From: an uncultured Syntrophomonadaceae bacterium
Lineage (GTDB): Bacteria > Bacillota > Dethiobacteria > DTU022
Assembly: GCA_964389365.1 (NCBI GenBank)
Contig: CAYMDO010000001.1
Coordinates: forward strand, 5,938 to 69,937
Length of the DNA: 64,000 bases
Reading direction: 5' to 3'
Shown: piece by piece, positions 1,675 to 55,600 of the stretch
Numbering within the stretch: the stretch's first letter is position 1
Layout of the letters: each line of letters begins with the position of its first letter
The notes under the pieces: generated by a model
Databases searched by the model: none
Told to the model about the DNA's origin: nothing
The model's input: only the letters and a program-made list of their open reading frames with translations
Position numbers and translations under genes: made by a program

Positions 1675-2368
1675 TTGCTGATTTCTCCTTCAAGCGAAAA
1701 CCAAAACCCCATACCGTTTCAATAACAACTTCGCCGTCTGTCAATTTTTTTCGCAATCTGCGCACCGTATCATCCGCTGCCCTGGTCTCCACTTCACAGG
1801 TATAGCCCCAGATATTATTGAGCAGCTCTTCCCTGGATACTGCCCGATCACTGTTTTCCAACAGGTATGTAAGCAGGTTATACTCGTTGGGAGTCAGTTC
1901 GACTGCTCTGCCGGCGAGCAATACTTTTTTACTCTGCCGGTTAAGCTCCAGATCCGCAAAGATCAGCAAACTTTCGTTAACCTTGGCACTGCCTGCTCTT
2001 TCATACTCAACACGGCGTAATATGGCCTTAACGCGCATCACCAGAGACATCGCTGAAAACGGCTTGGTAAAATAGTCATCACTGCCTAGGTTAATGCCTG
2101 TAGCGTAATCAAAATCGCTGTCCCGGGCTGTTAACATGATTATCGGCACAGTACTGGTTTTGCGAATCTCCCGGCAAACATCAAAACCGCTGGAACCGGG
2201 CATCATAATATCTAATATAATCAGATCGCAGGGTTCTTCGCGGTAAGCAGCTAAGAGCTGATCACCATCTTTAAAAGCGGCAACCCGGTACCCTTCGCTT
2301 TCGAGAAATGATTTAACCACATCGCGTATATTAACTTCATCATCGGCGATATAGACCAGCTCATTCAC
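1664..2368 (-). CDS. OmpR-family response regulator (receiver plus winged-helix)
   Basis: Receiver domain with DD...D...K pattern (ADDEVNIRD..ILDIMMPG). C-terminal winged-helix LTPNEYNLLTYLLEN....REELL..IWG. Confidence 0.9.
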   Translation of the reverse strand: MNELVYIADDEVNIRDVVKSFLESEGYRVAAFKDGDQLLAAYREEPCDLIILDIMMPGSSGFDVCREIRKTSTVPIIMLTARDSDFDYATGINLGSDDYFTKPFSAMSLVMRVKAILRRVEYERAGSAKVNESLLIFADLELNRQSKKVLLAGRAVELTPNEYNLLTYLLENSDRAVSREELLNNIWGYTCEVETRAADDTVRRLRKKLTDGEVVIETVWGFGFRLKEKSASGQ

Positions 2369-2725
2369 CTAATTAAATACCTCCCGGTTTTTCTGTTGCT
2401 ATTTTAATGCTAAACGGAATATAGATCTATTGAACAGCTGTCATAAACTTGCGGCAAAACCTACGCAAACCAGGTAGCCGCCAAGGACCGGTTCAACAAA
2501 TTGTTTCATCCGCCCCGGTTCTGCGCGGCATGCCGATCTGATCACCACTTTATATCATTGAAATCGAGTACTGCAGTATTTGCATCATATCACAGAAAAC
2601 GCACTTCCCTGCCCGGATAACAGGCTACCCTAATTTAACATGCAAAAAACTATCAGGAATTGTAGGATAACATACCACGCCAACTAACATAGGAGTAATA
2701 ATACATGATCATGGTAAAATAAAGC

Positions 2726-3856
2726 ATGAACAATGACGCTTACGATCTGGTGGTAATAGGCGCCGGGCCAGCCGGAACGCTTGCTGCTGCAACAGCAGCA
2801 GAAGCCGGTTTAAAAACAGCCATTATTGAGCTGAAAAGTTTGCCACGCCAAAAATTGTGCGGCGGCTTGATCTCGTCCAGGGCTCTTTCCCTGCTTCCGC
2901 CTGATTTCCACCTGCCGGCAAAAGAAGCATCTGCAATTTTTCATTTCACGTTTATAAAAAATAACCATTGCTACGAATACCGGGCTGATAAACCGTTAGG
3001 ATTGCTGATCGAGAGAACCCTTTTTGATCAACTTTTTGCTGCCTACGCCTGCCAAAAAGGTGTCACTTTGATCGAGGAAGCAGCCCTTAAAGGTGTGATA
3101 CCAGGGCACGGCACAGCTAATCAACAGACAAATGATTTTTCAGTTCACTTCCGCACAGGAGGGGTGCTTCAGATAATCAGCACACACTTTTTAATTGCGG
3201 CCGACGGTGCTTTTAGCCACTGTGCCGAGCTCGGGGGGATAAACCGGCGTTTACGAAAAAATATTTGCGGCCAGGGCCTGGCAGAGTTAATTCCGGAAAA
3301 GGCGCTCCCGGCTGGTGCGCCAAACAGCCTGCCACGGCTTGATTTTTATCCGATGCCATTTCAGGGCGGCTTGGGTTGGGCTTTTTATGGCAATGGCCGG
3401 CTTAACCGCGGTGTTGGCGGATTTTGCGGGCGTAGCGCTCTTATGAAATCCTATACCCGGCTTTTTGGCACGATACCGGAAGGAAGAACATTGAAAAATT
3501 GGCCACTACCCTTCCTTGGCCCGGTGAGTAAAGCGGCTGAAAAAAACCTGCTGCTGATCGGTGACTCTGCCGGCTTAATCGAACCTTTTTCAGGGGAAGG
3601 GCTTTATAACTGTTTTAAAAGCGCCAAACTGGCAGTGCAGGCTATCAGAGAAGCAAAAATAGCTGGCATTCACGCTGCTATCCCCTATAACCGGCTCTAC
3701 AAAAGGCATTTTCGCCGTTACTTTTTGCCAACCCTGGCAGGTGCGGTTATATTGACAGCACTGTCGCTGATCTGCCCTTCCGCAATGCCGCAGCAAATCG
3801 CCCGGTTGTTCGAGAACCGGCTGTGGTTCAATGATCAAAATTTTGATCCTCGATAA
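2726..3856 (+). CDS. FAD-dependent oxidoreductase, geranylgeranyl-reductase-like family
   Basis: N-terminal dinucleotide fold VVIGAGPAGTLAA. GDSAG motif near the C-terminus, resembling the GDAAG of geranylgeranyl reductases. Confidence 0.65.
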   Translation: MNNDAYDLVVIGAGPAGTLAAATAAEAGLKTAIIELKSLPRQKLCGGLISSRALSLLPPDFHLPAKEASAIFHFTFIKNNHCYEYRADKPLGLLIERTLFDQLFAAYACQKGVTLIEEAALKGVIPGHGTANQQTNDFSVHFRTGGVLQIISTHFLIAADGAFSHCAELGGINRRLRKNICGQGLAELIPEKALPAGAPNSLPRLDFYPMPFQGGLGWAFYGNGRLNRGVGGFCGRSALMKSYTRLFGTIPEGRTLKNWPLPFLGPVSKAAEKNLLLIGDSAGLIEPFSGEGLYNCFKSAKLAVQAIREAKIAGIHAAIPYNRLYKRHFRRYFLPTLAGAVILTALSLICPSAMPQQIARLFENRLWFNDQNFDPR

Positions 3857-5015
3857 AATCGTGGATAGAAACCAAACGGTTATCCCTGTAAAAGAAACGA
3901 GGTACCCGCTTATCCACTGCACACAACAGCTCATAATTTACAGTTCCGATTAAAGCGGCCGCTTCTTCAACAGGGATTTCCTCCGCTCCCTGCCTGCCGT
4001 ATAGAATTACTTCATCGCCCCGCTGCACCCCCGGAATATGGGTAACATTAACCATCAGATGATCCATGCAAACCCTGCCCACAACCGGTGCCCTAATCCC
4101 GCGTATTAAAACCTCTCCCTTGTTTGAAAGTTGGCGGTTGTAGCCGTCTGCATAACCGACAGAGACAGTAGCAATTGTTTCCACAGCTGCAGTTTTATAA
4201 GTACAACCGTAACTGATACAGCTGCCCGGTGGCAGTTTTTTTACCATCACTACCCGGCTTTTAAATGTCAGGGCGGGTTTTAGGGTAACGCCGCATTTGC
4301 TGAGGGAGGGAGCAGGGTAATGCCCGTAGAGAGCAAGCCCCAGGCGAATCAGGTTATAGTGAGAACCGGGATAATTTATCGCTGCAGCGCTATTTGCAGC
4401 ATGAACCAGGGGGAAAGCGATATTCTTCGCTTTCAGGGTTTCAACAACTATGTTGAATTTGCGCAACTGCTCTTCGGTGTAAGACTGATTTTCATCTTCA
4501 GCCGAAGCTAGGTGGGTAAAAATACCCTCAATCTTAATTGCGGGAAGGCCTGCAATCTGCTCAACTATGGCTGCCGCTTCTGCGGGAAGAAGGCCAACAC
4601 GACCCATACCGGTATCTATCTTTAACTGCAGGGGTAATATTACACCCGCAGCCTGAGCTTGTTTTGACAATTCCGCAGCGGTAAGGAAATCAAACACAGT
4701 AGGAGTTAGGTTATGCTCAATCAAGGTGGCGTAATGCACCGGATCGGTGTAACCAAGCAAAAGGATCGGGGCTTCAATGCCGGCCTGACGCAGTAAAATC
4801 CCCTCTTCAACGAAAGCAACAGCCAGGCTTTCGGCTCCGGAAGCAAGGGCAGCTTTTCCGACAACAGCAGCGCCGTGACCGTATCCGTCAGCCTTAACAA
4901 CGGCCATTATCCTGGTAGTGGGGGCCACCAGCTGCCTGAACTGAGCGATATTGTAAGAAATATAATCCAGGTTAATTTCAACCCAGGCCGGGCGAGCGGA
5001 ATAAACTGAGCGCAT
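3828..5015 (-). CDS. alr: Alanine racemase
   Basis: PLP-lysine motif AVVKADGYGHG and overall Alr architecture, ~395 aa. Confidence 0.9.
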   Translation of the reverse strand: MRSVYSARPAWVEINLDYISYNIAQFRQLVAPTTRIMAVVKADGYGHGAAVVGKAALASGAESLAVAFVEEGILLRQAGIEAPILLLGYTDPVHYATLIEHNLTPTVFDFLTAAELSKQAQAAGVILPLQLKIDTGMGRVGLLPAEAAAIVEQIAGLPAIKIEGIFTHLASAEDENQSYTEEQLRKFNIVVETLKAKNIAFPLVHAANSAAAINYPGSHYNLIRLGLALYGHYPAPSLSKCGVTLKPALTFKSRVVMVKKLPPGSCISYGCTYKTAAVETIATVSVGYADGYNRQLSNKGEVLIRGIRAPVVGRVCMDHLMVNVTHIPGVQRGDEVILYGRQGAEEIPVEEAAALIGTVNYELLCAVDKRVPRFFYRDNRLVSIHDFIEDQNFDH

Positions 5016-5028
5016 ATTTCCCCCTATT

Positions 5029-6318
5029 CTAGACTATCAGGCGAATCGTGCTGGGGTTGGGCCTGATCATCTCCAATTCCATAACTTGGTCAAGGGCTGT
5101 TCGAAAAGCAGATTCACGAACCAGATGAGTAACCAGCATAATCTCTGCCAGATCTTCCACCCGGCGTTTCTGGATAACCATATCCAGGCTGACCTGGTTG
5201 TCCCCAAACACCCGTGAGAATGCTGCAAGCACTCCCGGGCGATCCTCTGCCAGAAATCGGAGATAAAAGCGATTGCTTAACTCTTCAATCGGCACATAGA
5301 TAGTACCGGAAAACTTATTTTCAACTACACTGCAAACTGACTGGCCTGTGATACAGCGGGCCGCTTCCACTACATCAGCCATAACGGCTGTTGAGGTAGG
5401 ACTGCCACCAGCTCCACGTCCATAGAACATAATATCACCAACCGCTTCACCTTCGATAAAAACGGCATTGAACTCATTATTAACAGAAGCCAGCGGATGG
5501 TGCTGCGGTATCATGGCAGGGTGGACCCTGAGTGCAATGCCGGATGGCAGTTCTTCACCGATGGCCAGTAACTTGATTACAGATCCGATTTCACGGGCAT
5601 AGTTAATATCAGCAGCAGTAATGCCGGTAATCCCTTCTACATGAACCCGGGCGGGATCAATCGAACATCCAAAAGCAAGACTGGCCATAATCACTAATTT
5701 ATAGGATGCATCACGACCTTCAATATCGCTTGCGGGATCTGCCTCAGCAAAACCTTTTTCCCGGGCCTGGGCCAGAGCAGTAGCAAATTCAAGCCCTTCT
5801 TGGCCCATGCGGGTTAAGATATAGTTAGTTGTACCATTTAAGATCCCTGCCACCCTCGTGATCCGATCACCGACCAGGCTGTACTTTAAAGGGCGGATCA
5901 AGGGGATACCACCACCTACACTGGCCTCATAATAAAGGTTCCGGTTCTGAAAGCGGGCCAATTCCAGCAGCTCATCCCCGTGAGTGGCAATCAGGTCTTT
6001 ATTTGCCGTAACAACATATTTACCGTTCTTGAGCGCTTCCCTGATCAGTGCGCCGGCGGGTTCGATCCCGCCGATCAGCTCAATTACAATATCAATCTCC
6101 GGATCTTTTACCAGTTCAAACGCATCAGGCAATACTTTTTCGGCCGGTAATTTGAAGCTTTTCAGTTTATCAGGGTCATGTTCGGCAACCCGCCAGAGAA
6201 CCAGCTGAAGATCATTTTTTTGATTAATACTGCTTATATTGCGTTCAAACAGCTTAGCGACACTGCCTCCAATTGTCCCTAAGCCGACCAGGCCTACTTT
6301 TATTGCTTTTTTCCCCAT
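5029..6318 (-). CDS. hom: Homoserine dehydrogenase with C-terminal ACT domain
   Basis: N-terminal Rossmann VGLVGLGTIGGSV, central catalytic region and C-terminal ACT-like segment, 429 aa. Confidence 0.9.
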   Translation of the reverse strand: MGKKAIKVGLVGLGTIGGSVAKLFERNISSINQKNDLQLVLWRVAEHDPDKLKSFKLPAEKVLPDAFELVKDPEIDIVIELIGGIEPAGALIREALKNGKYVVTANKDLIATHGDELLELARFQNRNLYYEASVGGGIPLIRPLKYSLVGDRITRVAGILNGTTNYILTRMGQEGLEFATALAQAREKGFAEADPASDIEGRDASYKLVIMASLAFGCSIDPARVHVEGITGITAADINYAREIGSVIKLLAIGEELPSGIALRVHPAMIPQHHPLASVNNEFNAVFIEGEAVGDIMFYGRGAGGSPTSTAVMADVVEAARCITGQSVCSVVENKFSGTIYVPIEELSNRFYLRFLAEDRPGVLAAFSRVFGDNQVSLDMVIQKRRVEDLAEIMLVTHLVRESAFRTALDQVMELEMIRPNPSTIRLIV

Positions 6319-51443: not shown

Positions 51444-51523
51444 TCTCTGCAGCCTTCCGGTGTTGAATTTAGAAAGTGTTTACAAGGCAGCCAAACAATT
51501 CGCCTTCGCAGATAATTTTCCCT

Positions 51524-51561
51524 GCAAGAATAAGAAACCGGCGCTTTTTTTGACGCCGGTT
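51524..51561 (-). terminator. Rho-independent terminator after the asp23 gene
   Basis: AAACCGGCG-tcaaaaaaag-CGCCGGTTT 9 bp stem followed by CTTATTCTT on the minus strand. Confidence 0.55.
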
Positions 51562-51591
51562 TCTTTGGGATAATGAGTAAAAACAGTACTT

Positions 51592-52038
51592 TTAATCCTG
51601 CTTCTCTTTTTCAGGTTCTTCCTCCGTTTCTCCCTCGGCGCTCGGCACGTTGATACCCTGAACATTAATATTGATAGTCTCCACAGTTAAACCGGTAGTT
51701 TTTTCAACGCTGGCGCGGACCTCTTTTTTTAGTTTGTTCGTAGCATCCACGATGGATGTTCCGTATTCAGCAATAACATTCATATCTATAACGACCTTAT
51801 CTTCATTCACTTGAACCTTGATTCCCCTGGTTAAATCGCGGCGCCCAAGTTTCTCGGCGATACCTCCAACCAGTCCGCCGCTCATACCGGCAATGCCCGG
51901 AACCTCGCTTGATACAAGACTTACTATCACACCAATTACTTCTGAAGAAATTCGAATGCTGTCGCCTTCTTTTGCGGGATCATTCTTTAAAACAACATCC
52001 ACTGGCTCTATTGCTTTTCCCTTTTCGTTTTTATCCAC
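51592..52038 (-). CDS. Asp23/Gls24 family envelope stress (alkaline shock) protein
   Basis: Family core in ...VIGVIVSLVSSEVPGIAGMSGGLVGGIA.... Acidic low-complexity C-terminal tail. 148 aa. Confidence 0.85.
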   Translation of the reverse strand: MDKNEKGKAIEPVDVVLKNDPAKEGDSIRISSEVIGVIVSLVSSEVPGIAGMSGGLVGGIAEKLGRRDLTRGIKVQVNEDKVVIDMNVIAEYGTSIVDATNKLKKEVRASVEKTTGLTVETININVQGINVPSAEGETEEEPEKEKQD

Positions 52039-52125
52039 GATCTTACCTCCTTGTACAATATTTTTAGAAATCGTAACCGGACATGGATTTTACCGGAAAA
52101 TACTGACTAAATGTATATTTTTAAT

Positions 52126-52154
52126 CGAATATTTACTACATTATATTATCTTAA
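52126..52154 (-). promoter_or_regulatory. Perfect-consensus sigma-A promoter (TTGACA -17- TATAAT) aimed at asp23
   Basis: The minus strand reads CTCTTGACA gtgctatattaagataa TATAAT G. The -35 is at 52149-52154 and the -10 at 52126-52131. That leaves ~80 nt to the asp23 start. Confidence 0.5.
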
Positions 52155-52275
52155 TATAGCACTGTCAAGAGAAGTGAAAACGGTAAAGCGCGCCAACGCG
52201 CAGCTGGCTTACAGAATGGTCGGCTTAATGCAGAAAGCTGTTTCTCGTGCAGGCGTTAGCTTGACAGCATAAATC

Positions 52276-53552
52276 ATGACGGAAGAAGAAAAAGAAAAGA
52301 AGGAACTCACGTTGAAGCTAAATCTGGATGAAGAGCTTGAGCCGGGCGCAGATGAACGGAAAAACTTCGGCTACGCTGCAATTTTGAAAGTGTTCCACAA
52401 GTTGGAGCTTGATCATTTTTTAACAACAAGGCGAGGAATGAGGCTTATAAGTTTAATACGAAATCGATTATGCTTTTATTGGTGGTCTCCGGGCTTCTTG
52501 CCCCGGGCTCGAAGGGCAAGGCTTATCAGGATAGACACCGTTACTTTGAGCGCTTTAATTTTTCGGTTACCGATCTCTACCGCGCTCTTTCACATTTTGC
52601 GGCAATCGCTAAAGATTGCCAGCGTCATATCCACGAGCATGTTGTTCAAAAATACGGCAGTAATGTTAAGACTATCTATTACGGTGTGACTAACTTTTAC
52701 TTTGAGATTGATCAGGCTGTTGAACTGCGTAAATATGGCCGCTTAAAAGAACATCGCCATAATCCATTGGTACAGATGGGACTGGCCATGGATGCTGACG
52801 GGGTTCCTTTGTGTTATGAAATCTTTCCGGGAAATAAGCTTGACAAAGAGACCTTTCGCTCTGTAATTGGCGGGGTGCGTAAGAACTATGATACCGGTAG
52901 GATAGTGGTGGTTGCCGATATGGAGGTAATCACTGGTGATAATATCTATTATCTTACCGGTGGCAAGAACAGAAACGGCTTAGTAGCCAACCTTCAGCAG
53001 TACAGCCGAACCACTTCTTACGGGGAGGCTAAGTACGTTAAAAACTTAGTGTTTGACAAAAAGACCGGTGAAATCCTTAATGCAAAGGCAGAGCCCTGTT
53101 TTGATTATGAGAAGCTTGAACAAGAACAGCTCTATGACGGTTATTATGCGATTGTCACCAGTGAGCTTGAGATGTCGGAACAGCAGATTATTGATACTTA
53201 CCGCGGCCTGTGGGAGATCGAGGAAACTTTCAAGATCACCGAAGGTGCTCTTGAAGCGCGGCCTGTTTTCCTCTCCCGCGAGGAGCGGATTAGCGCGCAC
53301 TTTCTTTCCTGCTTCATAGCACTTGTGATCATCTGGCTTATTCAAAAGCTAACCTACAGGCGCTATTCTGCAGAAAAGATCGTTGAAGCTTTAAGCAAAA
53401 TTGCCTGCTCCAATGAGCAGGACAACCTTTATCTTTTTGATTATAGAAGTGAAATTTCTGATGCCATCGGCAAGGCCCTGGGGATCGATTTCACTCGCAG
53501 AAGGATGCAGTTAGGTGAGGTGAAAAATATTTTGGCAAAAGCTAAAAAATGA
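52276..53552 (+). mobile_element. IS1634-family transposase remnant (frameshifted, internally deleted, no recognisable terminal inverted repeats)
   Basis: Two overlapping frames (52276-52689 and 52413-53552) together give the IS1634 pattern ...NFGYAAILKVFHKLELDHF/FNNKARNEAYKF...YGVTNFYFE...KEHRHNPLVQMGLAMD...PGN...VVAD...YDGYYAIVTSE...YRGLWEIEETFKITEGALEARPVFLSREE. The frame break is at a T6 run (52415-52420). The segment between the second-D region and YDGYYA is ~100 aa short of intact relatives. Confidence 0.7.
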
Positions 53553-53652
53553 GTCTGTTCCCTACATATTTATGATAAATCATAAAAGCCGCAAACCCTT
53601 TATCCATAGGGGTTACGGCCTTGTTTTTGCTCAATTTTCCGTCAAAGTCAGG

Positions 53653-53681
53653 ATAATATAATCTAAATATAATACTGTCAA
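53653..53681 (-). promoter_or_regulatory. Second copy of the asp23-type sigma-A promoter (TTGACA -17- TATTAT), facing into the IS remnant
   Basis: The minus strand reads CTCTTGACA gtattatatttagatta TATTAT. It forms a ~30 bp imperfect direct repeat with 52126-52173 (roughly 24/30 identical). Confidence 0.4.
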
Positions 53682-53812
53682 GAGGTGGTTTTGGAAGCAC
53701 TGCAAAACAAAAACAAATAAATCTTCACTTTCAAATAATGTTATAATTAGCCAGGCTTTTGTCAATACTGACAATTGAAAATTTCTTTATTCGAAGAAAG
53801 GGATGACCCCCT

Positions 53813-55600
53813 TTGACTAGGTTGATCCTGATTAAAGACTCAGTGCAACAGGTTGCTGAAGCAGTTACCGCTGCCCTGCAAATTGAAACTGAAATCATTG
53901 ACAACAGCTTAACGATTGTGGCCGGCACCGGCCGCTATAAGAAAAAAATAGGCCTCCAGGAAGAGGACGGGGATCTTGATTCGGGTTTCATCTATGGACA
54001 GCTTTTAAAAAGCGGGGAGCCCTACATCAATGATAATCCCAGTCCGGACCCTCCTTACGGGGCCAGGGAGAACGAACAGGCGGAAATATGCTGTCCGATC
54101 AATCTAGACGGTGATATTATTGGCCTTATTGCCTTGGTTGCCTTTAATCAGAAGCAAAAAAGAAAACTGCTTTCCAAAAGAGAAAACAATCTTTCCTTTT
54201 TATCACGCATGGCTTTTCTGATTGCTTCGAAAGTGGCCCAGGTTGAAATTGCCAACGAAATGAGCATGATAGTTGAAAATATTCGCGAAGGAATCCTGCT
54301 TACTAACAATTGCGGCCTAATCACCAGTTGTAATTCGGCAGCAGAAAGAATCCTATCCGTAAGCAAGGACGACCTGATCGGAACCTCAATTTCCGATTTA
54401 TGGGGTGATATCCCAATTGACGAAGTCCTGTTCAGGAAGATCCGCTATGAAGATCTTGAGACAATTTATATGGATACCGATAAACACCAGAGGCATCTCA
54501 TCATCAGTGCGGACCCGATCCTTATTGATGACCCGAAAGATAAAACCAACAGCAAAATCTGCACCGGGGCATTGGTAACTTTTAGAGGATTTCAGGAAAT
54601 GAAGAAAAAAATCTACAATATGACCGACAAGCAGCGTGCAGTAAGATTTACTGACATACTGGGCAATAGCCCTCAAATTCGTGAAAGCATTGAACGCTCA
54701 ATGATGATCGCTGAAACAAATTCGACAATTTTGATTACCGGCGAAAGCGGTACAGGTAAAGAACTTTTTGCCAGGGCCATTCATTTTAACAGTCAGCGCA
54801 AGGCAGAACCTTTTATCACAGTCAACTGCGGGGCTATTCCGGAAACTCTTTTGGAAACTGAATTATTTGGCTATGACAGCGGAGCTTTTACCGGTGCTCA
54901 AAAAGGGGGTAAGGCCGGTAAGTTTGAGATCGCCCACAAAGGGACTATCTTCTTAGATGAGATTGGCGATTTGCCTCTTCATCTCCAGGTTAAGTTGCTT
55001 CACGTTTTACAGCGCCGTGAAGTGGAAAGGGTTGGCAGCAACCAAGTTATATCTGTCAATGTCCGGGTTCTTGCCGCTACTAATCATAATCTAAGTCAAA
55101 TGGTAGAAGACGGTGAGTTTCGCGAAGATTTATACTACAGATTATGTGTCATCCCACTGCATATTCCCTCTTTACGAGAAAGAAAAGAAGATCTAGAAAC
55201 CCTGCTCTTTTATTTTCTTGATAAATTTAACCGCATCCTTGGTAAAAATATTAAAGGCTTTGAAGCAGACGCTCTTGCTGTATTTAAAGCCTATGACTGG
55301 CCGGGAAATGTCCGCGAGCTTGAAAATGCCATGGAGTATGCGGCAAGCTTTGAAAGAGGGGCAAGAATTAGTATATCCAGTATTCAACCACGTATTCAGC
55401 AAGTTAATAAGCCCGAAAGATCTGCATCTTTACCGCTCAGGAGCGGTTTAAATCATATGGAGAAGGAAGTTATCCTGCAACAGCTAAAACAAACAGGCTT
55501 TTCCACTGCGGGGAAGAGGACGGCGGCCATAAATCTTGGCATTAGCGAATCAACCCTCTACAGGCGCATCCGGAATCTTGGTATAAAACCGGATAGTTAA
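53813..55600 (+). CDS. Sigma-54-dependent transcriptional activator with N-terminal GAF/PAS sensory domains
   Basis: AAA+ sigma-54 interaction domain (GESGTGKE, GAFTGA, ...RELEN) and a C-terminal Fis-type HTH. The N-terminal ~300 aa have GAF- and PAS-like composition. TTG start with AAAGGGA RBS. Confidence 0.85.
   Translation: MTRLILIKDSVQQVAEAVTAALQIETEIIDNSLTIVAGTGRYKKKIGLQEEDGDLDSGFIYGQLLKSGEPYINDNPSPDPPYGARENEQAEICCPINLDGDIIGLIALVAFNQKQKRKLLSKRENNLSFLSRMAFLIASKVAQVEIANEMSMIVENIREGILLTNNCGLITSCNSAAERILSVSKDDLIGTSISDLWGDIPIDEVLFRKIRYEDLETIYMDTDKHQRHLIISADPILIDDPKDKTNSKICTGALVTFRGFQEMKKKIYNMTDKQRAVRFTDILGNSPQIRESIERSMMIAETNSTILITGESGTGKELFARAIHFNSQRKAEPFITVNCGAIPETLLETELFGYDSGAFTGAQKGGKAGKFEIAHKGTIFLDEIGDLPLHLQVKLLHVLQRREVERVGSNQVISVNVRVLAATNHNLSQMVEDGEFREDLYYRLCVIPLHIPSLRERKEDLETLLFYFLDKFNRILGKNIKGFEADALAVFKAYDWPGNVRELENAMEYAASFERGARISISSIQPRIQQVNKPERSASLPLRSGLNHMEKEVILQQLKQTGFSTAGKRTAAINLGISESTLYRRIRNLGIKPDS

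Follow-up and report, generated by a model that had tools for sequence, protein, structure and literature searches.

An IS1634-family relic beside a duplicated asp23 promoter, and the apparent preference of its relatives for promoter edges

Two described insertion sequences (IS), IS1634 of Mycoplasma mycoides subsp. mycoides SC and IS1549 of Mycobacterium smegmatis, generate target duplications that are long and variable, from 8 to 514 bp (PMC2266710). The 2008 review of the family gives AT-rich duplications of 5-6 bp as the norm for IS1634-family elements and offers no mechanistic model for the variable long duplication of IS1634 and IS1549; its table lists terminal repeats with C at position 1 and YT at positions 7-8 (PMC2266710). 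Here we describe a decayed IS1634-family element in a stretch of 64,000 nucleotides (nt) from an uncultured Syntrophomonadaceae bacterium (contig CAYMDO010000001.1, positions 5,938-69,937; the whole stretch is called the window below). It lies between asp23 and a divergent gene for a sigma-54-dependent activator, with a copy of the asp23 core promoter on each side. The reading we favour, with a probability of roughly 0.82, is that the element inserted at the edge of the asp23 -10 hexamer, duplicated the 32 bp of the promoter and later decayed, the promoter site having been chosen by the habit of its clade.

A repeat search placed 52140-52171 and 53653-53684 in a single direct-repeat family, identical at 27 of 32 positions (84%). 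The initial annotation, made from the letters of the window and its open reading frames (ORFs), had described an imperfect direct repeat of ~30 bp here, and its coordinates were off by only a few bases. The 19-nt core of the repeat, AATATANNACTGTCAAGAG, occurs at just these two places in the 64 kb, against none expected from 100 shuffles. The 32 bp consist of exactly a -10 hexamer, a 17-nt spacer, a -35 hexamer and three further nucleotides, and the two copies ranked first and second in a promoter scan of 2.5 kb. On the minus strand the left copy (copy 1, from 52168 to 52140) reads TTGACA-17-TATAAT and matches the consensus at 12 of 12 positions, while the right copy (copy 2, from 53681 to 53653) reads TTGACA-17-TATTAT and matches at 11 of 12, as the initial annotation had it. 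One of the five differences between the copies falls in the -10 hexamer and four fall in the spacer.

We searched for orthologous loci with the sigma-54 activator protein as the anchor, scanning one genome per species. Three syntenic loci without the element were found, one in a Syntrophomonadaceae metagenome-assembled genome (MAG; L006) and two others (L007 and L008), with activators 81-82% identical to that of the window. Each has a single TTGACA-17-TATAAT upstream of asp23. When 52172-53684 is taken out of the window, what is left aligns collinearly with all three loci through the ribosome-binding site (RBS), the leader hairpin, the promoter and the palindrome before the activator gene. The distance from copy 2 to the conserved activator-promoter block is 50 nt in the window and 50-52 nt in L007 and L008. 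As the empty sites hold one promoter and are collinear with the window after removal, the ancestor had one promoter, and the window carries an insert and one extra copy. Copy 1 adjoins the asp23 leader, and native upstream DNA is gone from 3 bp beyond its -35 hexamer. Because copy 1 is contiguous with the leader and has the perfect consensus shared by all three relatives, it presumably still drives asp23.

These comparisons bear on whether the two 32-mers might be independent sequences, similar by chance, or an earlier local tandem duplication later hit by the element. The region is AT-rich and the copies differ at five of 32 positions, as either account would allow. Against both, the 19-nt core is found twice where none is expected, the relatives are single-copy, and the spacing on both sides is restored on removing the insert and one copy. 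Copy 2 also begins at the base right after the end of the element, as the duplications of its relatives do. We regard both accounts as very improbable.

The assignment of the element to the IS1634 family, made in the initial annotation, is borne out by profile searches. The remnant ORF at 52470-53552 (360 amino acids) scored 259.5 bits, in two stretches, against the NCBIfam model NF033559 (IS1634 family transposase), which has a cut-off of 100; the full-length relative P0002 scored 354.9 bits. Scores against the IS4 and IS701 models were far under their cut-offs. The Pfam domain DDE_Tnp_1 is present in the remnant ORF, and a protein search returned thousands of relatives, the full-length ones having 577-578 amino acids and being labelled as IS1634 family by several sources. 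Within the 64-kb window we found no further copies of the element.

To define the ends of the element we surveyed the DNA of intact copies, first at L002-L005 and then at L086-L187. One intact copy occupies 2,723,035-2,725,040 of Desulfoscipio gibsoniae CP003273. Intact relatives measure 1988-2013 bp between their inverted repeats, with a few at 2070-2272 bp, and have one long transposase ORF. They fit the length of 1500-2000 bp given for the family, while the window copy is 1399 bp after two deletions. Their left end is CGTTAGTTTGACAGCA and their right end ...TGCTGTCAAAGTCAGG, the reverse complement of which is CCTGACTTTGACAGCA; together these form an inverted repeat matching at 13 of 16 positions, with C at position 1 and TT at positions 7-8. 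The corresponding repeats in the window are CGTTAGCTTGACAGCA and CCTGACTTTGACGGAA. In the intact relatives surveyed the right end is conserved as ...CTGTCAAAGTCAGG, that is, ...GTCAGG. Because intact relatives end there and the repeat in the window starts at the next base, the repeat consists of duplicated target DNA and is no part of the element. The initial annotation had read the locus as an old insertion into the asp23 promoter region that duplicated the promoter, and had named the upstream regions of relatives lacking the IS and the true ends of intact copies as the evidence to seek. Both now support it.

The transposase gene carries several lesions. A profile of the first 480 nt of the IS, run with nhmmer, matched 52254-52275 to IS positions 1-22 and 52276-52404 to positions 347-475, so the element is not truncated at its 5' end. 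Instead, a 324-nt internal deletion directly after the left inverted repeat has removed the 5' untranslated region (UTR) and codons 1-60 (IS positions about 23-345). The loss of N-terminal sequence proposed earlier thus stands, but the left inverted repeat is kept. Alignment to the intact copy at L004 showed a 1-nt deletion at 52414/52415. The frameshift had been placed within a T6 run at 52415-52420; it is real, but lies just 5' of the run, which occupies 52416-52421. The same alignment showed that IS positions 1050-1326 (277 nt) are missing and one base is inserted, amounting to 92 codons lost in frame where ~100 missing residues had been estimated.

A further change noted earlier, YYGVTN for YYDVTN, was also recovered: the codon at 52683-52685 encodes Gly, in place of an Asp that is invariant in about 85 relatives, in the motif [IV]Y[YF]D[VI]TN. 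In P0002 the Pfam DDE_Tnp_1 match covers residues 211-504 and starts at profile position 24. The replaced Asp lies about 14 residues before this match, a position that suggests that it is the first catalytic Asp. In itself, the feature in the window adds a dead member to a family that was already known, as was its peculiarity.

That peculiarity, the long and variable target duplication documented for the family (PMC2266710) and already invoked in the initial annotation, is characteristic of this clade. We measured duplications in ten relatives where both flanks were readable; they ranged from 56 to 380 bp and were 98-100% identical. Five were complete: 97 bp in L166 (the Desulfoscipio gibsoniae chromosome), 91 bp in L186, 380 bp in L179 and 120 bp in L121, all 100% identical, and 122 bp in L136 (98%). 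The other five were limited by the end of the contig: 145 bp in L172, 165 bp in L177 (Desulfotomaculum arcticum), 146 bp in L099, 87 bp in L110 and 56 bp in L187. All of these direct repeats start at the base following ...CAGG, and those seen in full stop at the left inverted repeat. In five cases, the window included, the two bases right after CAGG also begin the left copy of the duplication; they are mostly AT, with GT in L136 and TT in L094. As these two bases recur before the left end, and as the complete duplications found later start after CAGG, the element ends at ...CAGG and the duplication in the window is the full 32 bp. The window resembles its relatives in that the right copy abuts the element; the left copy does not, and the copies are 84% identical. 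Its 32 bp falls inside the published range of 8-514 bp and below the ten values measured in relatives.

Some contigs show the element in unusual arrangements. In L096, L099, L110 and L187, all short metagenome contigs, the element is followed by the duplication and then by the start of the element again, and a second right end is found upstream of the left end in L090 (at 55), L118 (at 144) and L184 (at 393). These may result from assembly cycling through long target duplications, or alternatively may be tandem or circular forms. L187 comes from SRR11582139, a sister sample of the source of the window, and carries an intact relative, P0015, with about 75% amino acid identity to the remnant. 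Live members of the clade thus coexist with the dead copy in the same community.

The insertion sites of the relatives share a pattern, which we counted over 55 distinct sites, taking null rates from the same contigs. The target bases at +1 to +6 after ...CAGG are A (47 of 55), T (54), W, W, T (46) and A (47), which read TAWWAT on the opposite strand. An exact TATAAT on that strand is present at 15 of the 55 sites, against a null rate of 0.06%, and a match of at least 5/6 at 30 of them, against 0.85%. A TTGACA match of at least 5/6 at a spacer of 16-18 nt occurs at 11 of 55 sites (null 1.7%, p = 2e-9), while spacers of 7-9, 10-12, 13-15, 19-21 and 22-24 nt each gave 1-4 of 55. Right junctions with both hexamers include TTGACA-17-TATAAT in L089, TTGACA-18-TATAAT in L177, TTGACA-17-TAGAAT in L122, TTGACA-17-TAATAT in L186 and TTGACA-17-TATTAT, upstream of a thioredoxin gene, in L166. 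Of the 13 distinct contexts, 12 have a left neighbour gene whose transcription runs away from the element, and in clean contexts the start codon of this gene is found 100-470 nt past the -10 hexamer.

It seems that the clade inserts at the downstream edge of sigma-70-type promoters and duplicates them. The insertion in the window fits this pattern exactly, and we conclude that the asp23 promoter was hit because the clade aims at such sites. More generally, this Bacillota clade of the IS1634 family can tentatively, at somewhat less than even odds, be described as a promoter-targeting transposon, its right end placed just downstream of the -10 hexamer, its orientation fixed and divergent from the host gene and its left end at a variable distance upstream.

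The regularity of these junctions raises the question of whether the repeated 30-mer could belong to the element itself, as its own termini or as an inward promoter that it carries. Many relatives do show a -10-like hexamer, and often TGTCAA as well, right after the conserved end. However, the element-free orthologous sites already hold the promoter, the sequence after ...CAGG recurs at the far side of the element in L166, L186, L179, L121 and L136, and the spacer sequences are completely different between sites. The -10-like bases at the junction are target DNA, because the complete duplications contain them. A conserved flank motif as part of the element is ruled out by these duplications together with the empty sites, and we give an origin of the 30-mer in the element almost no credence.

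How the target is recognised can be pictured in two ways. A -35 hexamer is present within the core of the inverted repeat, TTGACAGC, and the transposase may accordingly bind -35/-10-like DNA. Alternatively, it could attack the distorted DNA of the RNA polymerase open complex. Two independent insertions of different clade members lie upstream of dnaA, in L172 (IS at 2331-4334) and L179 (IS at 2337-4336), between dnaA and the rnpA-yidD-yidC-jag cluster, with duplications of 145 bp (contig-limited) and 380 bp. In more distant relatives (L148-L165, with transposases 31-36% identical) the CAGG-like end is followed by TA-rich sequence (TATTATA or TAATATA, for example), shifted by about one base; the preference for -10-like targets may therefore reach beyond the close clade.

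Taken together, the locus suggests the following history. An intact element of about 2.0 kb would have transposed between asp23 and the divergent activator gene, its right end becoming linked to target DNA at the precise downstream border of the asp23 -10 hexamer. The left end would have been joined 32 bp upstream of that point, leaving 3 bp between it and the -35 hexamer, and when the staggered joints were repaired those 32 bp, a complete core promoter, would have been duplicated. The left copy would have stayed with the asp23 leader, keeping its perfect TTGACA-17-TATAAT and still serving asp23, while the right copy, which kept the native upstream DNA, would have been left pointing into the right end of the element and have drifted at one -10 base to TATTAT. 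Decay would have come afterwards, with the loss of the 324 nt and of the 92 internal codons, the frameshift, the Asp-to-Gly change and divergence of the copies at 5 of 32 positions, and 82 nt of filler would have ended up between the left copy and the left inverted repeat. Relatives insert by the same end and in the same orientation against -10-like hexamers of sigma-70-type promoters, with duplications of tens to hundreds of bp that run upstream and leave the host gene its promoter.

Several observations weigh against this history. The left copy is parted from the left end of the element by 82 unrelated nt, unlike in every clean relative. The 32 bp are fewer than in any of the ten duplications measured in relatives, so that the original may have been longer and partly replaced, and the two copies are just 84% identical. 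In addition, many metagenome contigs with relatives show no detectable duplication. Chimeric assembly may account for these: across L167-L176, whose copies encode P0025, one and the same element occurs with three different left flanks and three different right flanks, variously combined. This shows chimeric assembly through the repeat, which would explain many contigs without a target duplication.

The filler matched nothing in our searches. Neither blastn-short nor tblastx matched it to any of the loci fetched, among them the empty sites and about 100 IS copies, and a protein search with both of its open frames was likewise negative. Rfam gave no match to it at E <= 1, the sole Rfam match being a sub-threshold Leu_leader elsewhere. 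With nhmmer it matched neither the profile of the 5' 480 nt of the IS nor that of the 3' 160 nt, and the idea that it is the N-terminal coding start of the transposase is unsupported by either profile. Contigs encoding an identical Asp23 (L188 and L189) are the window's own sequence (100% identical in L189, which was compared) and provided no new locus. The filler may be DNA captured during repair, a donor flank carried along, or a replacement of the distal part of a longer duplication.

The first and last of these sources would make the original event slightly different. The duplication could have been longer, with the part of the left copy near the left inverted repeat later replaced by the filler, or the filler could have been captured in repairing an abortive cleavage at the left end that also made the 324-nt deletion. 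In its favour, all ten duplications in relatives are at least 56 bp and, where complete, abut the left inverted repeat, and the 22-nt inverted repeat is bounded by the filler on one side and by the 324-nt deletion on the other. However, 52172-52253 shows no resemblance to 53685-53766: a global alignment made for a decayed duplication of 112 bp that takes in the filler gave no similarity beyond the 32-mer. None of the searches found a source for the filler, and duplications down to 8 bp have been reported for IS1634 and IS1549 (PMC2266710). We think this course of events unlikely, though worth keeping in view; it is a variant of the favoured explanation rather than a contradiction of it.

The donor-flank source would instead have the element moving with 82 nt from the left side of its donor site, so that the inserted unit was 52172-53652, bracketed exactly by the 32-bp duplication. 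The geometry fits, as 52171 is the last base of copy 1 and 53653 the first of copy 2, and nothing else is duplicated. L094 may share the layout, with a 15-nt match at the right junction and then 65 unmatched nt before the left inverted repeat, but it is a metagenome contig and possibly chimeric. The outer end of the filler has no sequence resembling an inverted repeat, and no donor copy with the filler as its flank was found among the fetched loci. We consider such transport improbable.

Copy 2 faces into the element, where a hairpin lies close by. The minus-strand RNA at 53573-53630 is predicted to fold at -22.3 kcal/mol (z -2.3), and the IS family profile matches the region on both strands, with the structure conserved in the family. 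The hairpin looks like a two-way terminator. With its U-run it lies about 30-75 nt downstream of the expected start from copy 2, and it would probably stop an antisense transcript after about 70 nt. Because this conserved hairpin and U-run sit just inside the right end of the element, we would expect a short antisense RNA from copy 2 at most, and not the transcription across the dead transposase gene that the initial annotation had proposed.

The features of the locus are collected in Table 1. The predicted start of asp23 transcription would give a leader containing the hairpin AACCGG...CCGG (about 52075-52096), which is present in all three orthologues and has no Rfam match. On the other side of the insertion, just upstream of the activator gene, 53759-53774 holds a palindrome resembling TTGTCAA-N2-TTGACAA (TTGTCAATACTGACAA). 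It is kept in all three orthologous loci (L008 about 5952-5969, L007 about 3566-3583, L006 about 5951-5968) and probably serves a regulator as its operator. A minus-strand TTGACA-16-TAACAT was also called here in the promoter scan. The weak, sub-threshold Leu_leader match, whose 23.8 bits fall short of the gathering score of 50, spans 51481-51566, where a hairpin and T-run separate asp23 from the minus-strand gene upstream of it. Most likely it is no more than a two-way terminator.

Table 1. Positions of the element, the promoter copies and the neighbouring genes in the window
Feature	Position	Strand	Evidence or details
asp23 (Asp23-family protein, 148 amino acids), presumably served by copy 1	51592-52038	-	Pfam PF03780, 102.5 bits; syntenic in L006-L008
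asp23 leader, about 95-100 nt, with conserved hairpin and RBS	52039-52139	-	Conserved blocks when aligned to the three orthologous loci
Left copy of the 32-bp duplication (copy 1), native asp23 core promoter	52140-52171	-	-10 TATAAT 52140-52145; -35 TTGACA 52163-52168
Filler, about 51% G+C, between left copy and left end of the element	52172-52253		No match in any search
Decayed IS1634-family element, reduced from about 2000 bp to 1399 bp	52254-53652	+	Alignment to intact L002-L005; NF033559
Left terminal inverted repeat CGTTAGCTTGACAGCATAAATC, IS positions 1-22	52254-52275	+	nhmmer profile; blastn to left end of more than 20 copies
Transposase codons 61 to about 106, up to the 1-nt deletion	52276-52414	+	Pairwise alignment to L004
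Longest remaining transposase ORF, 360 amino acids, with Gly for the invariant Asp and 92 codons gone in frame at 52978-52984	52470-53552	+	
Predicted terminator: hairpin 53586-53621 flanked by a plus-strand T-run and a U-run of the minus transcript	53573-53630		Fold; family profile
Right terminal inverted repeat CCGTCAAAGTCAGG, degenerate, ending ...GTCAGG	53637-53652	+	End conserved in intact relatives
Right copy of the 32-bp duplication (copy 2), facing into the element	53653-53684	-	-10 TATTAT 53653-53658; -35 TTGACA 53676-53681
Sigma-54-dependent activator (GAF-PAS-AAA+-HTH_8), right-hand neighbour	53813-55600	+	Pfam; 81-82% identical orthologues in L006-L008

The clade described here shares with IS1634 and IS1549 its transposase family (NF033559), terminal repeats beginning with C and having YT at positions 7-8, and variable long duplications, of 32 bp in the window and 56-380 bp in relatives compared with 8-514 bp in the literature. 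It differs in coming from spore-forming Bacillota (Desulfoscipio, Desulfotomaculum and Syntrophomonadaceae-like MAGs), as elements of about 2.0 kb with transposases of 577-578 amino acids, and in that the copy in the window is dead. Typical members of the family, such as ISPfe2 and ISGka5, have the same DDE transposase family and make AT-rich duplications of 5-6 bp, to which the 6-bp ATWWTA at the right junction of the present clade is similar. Such typical elements have both ends joined inside a single stretch of 5-6 bp, whereas here it is only the right end that meets the hexamer, with the left end joined 32-380 bp away. By analogy only, the pattern recalls the yeast retrotransposon Ty3, which integrates at the transcription start sites of RNA polymerase III, its integrase guided by TFIIIB: in both, integration is position-specific beside the initiation site of a host promoter and spares the host gene. 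Ty3 is, however, a eukaryotic long terminal repeat (LTR) retrotransposon with no homology to these elements, and makes no long duplication.

Taken alone, the feature in the window is an ordinary relic, a dead insertion sequence with its target duplication, and it shows how a long duplication can leave a host gene with a perfect-consensus promoter and a spare copy. What is new is that members of the clade appear to set one end against the -10 hexamer of strong promoters, with a constant orientation and a duplication that extends upstream; we found no report of promoter targeting by IS1634-family elements in the literature searched, whose coverage did not extend to the original descriptions of IS1634 and IS1549. 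Joining with one end anchored and the other free offers a model, both concrete and testable, for the unexplained long variable duplications. If it is true, variable joining of the left end would be the origin of the long duplications of IS1634 and IS1549. The host gene would receive a full copy of its promoter, making the insertion nearly harmless, while the second copy would face a terminator within the element. This would be a rare bacterial case of promoter-aimed transposon integration, and possibly a 'safe-haven' strategy.

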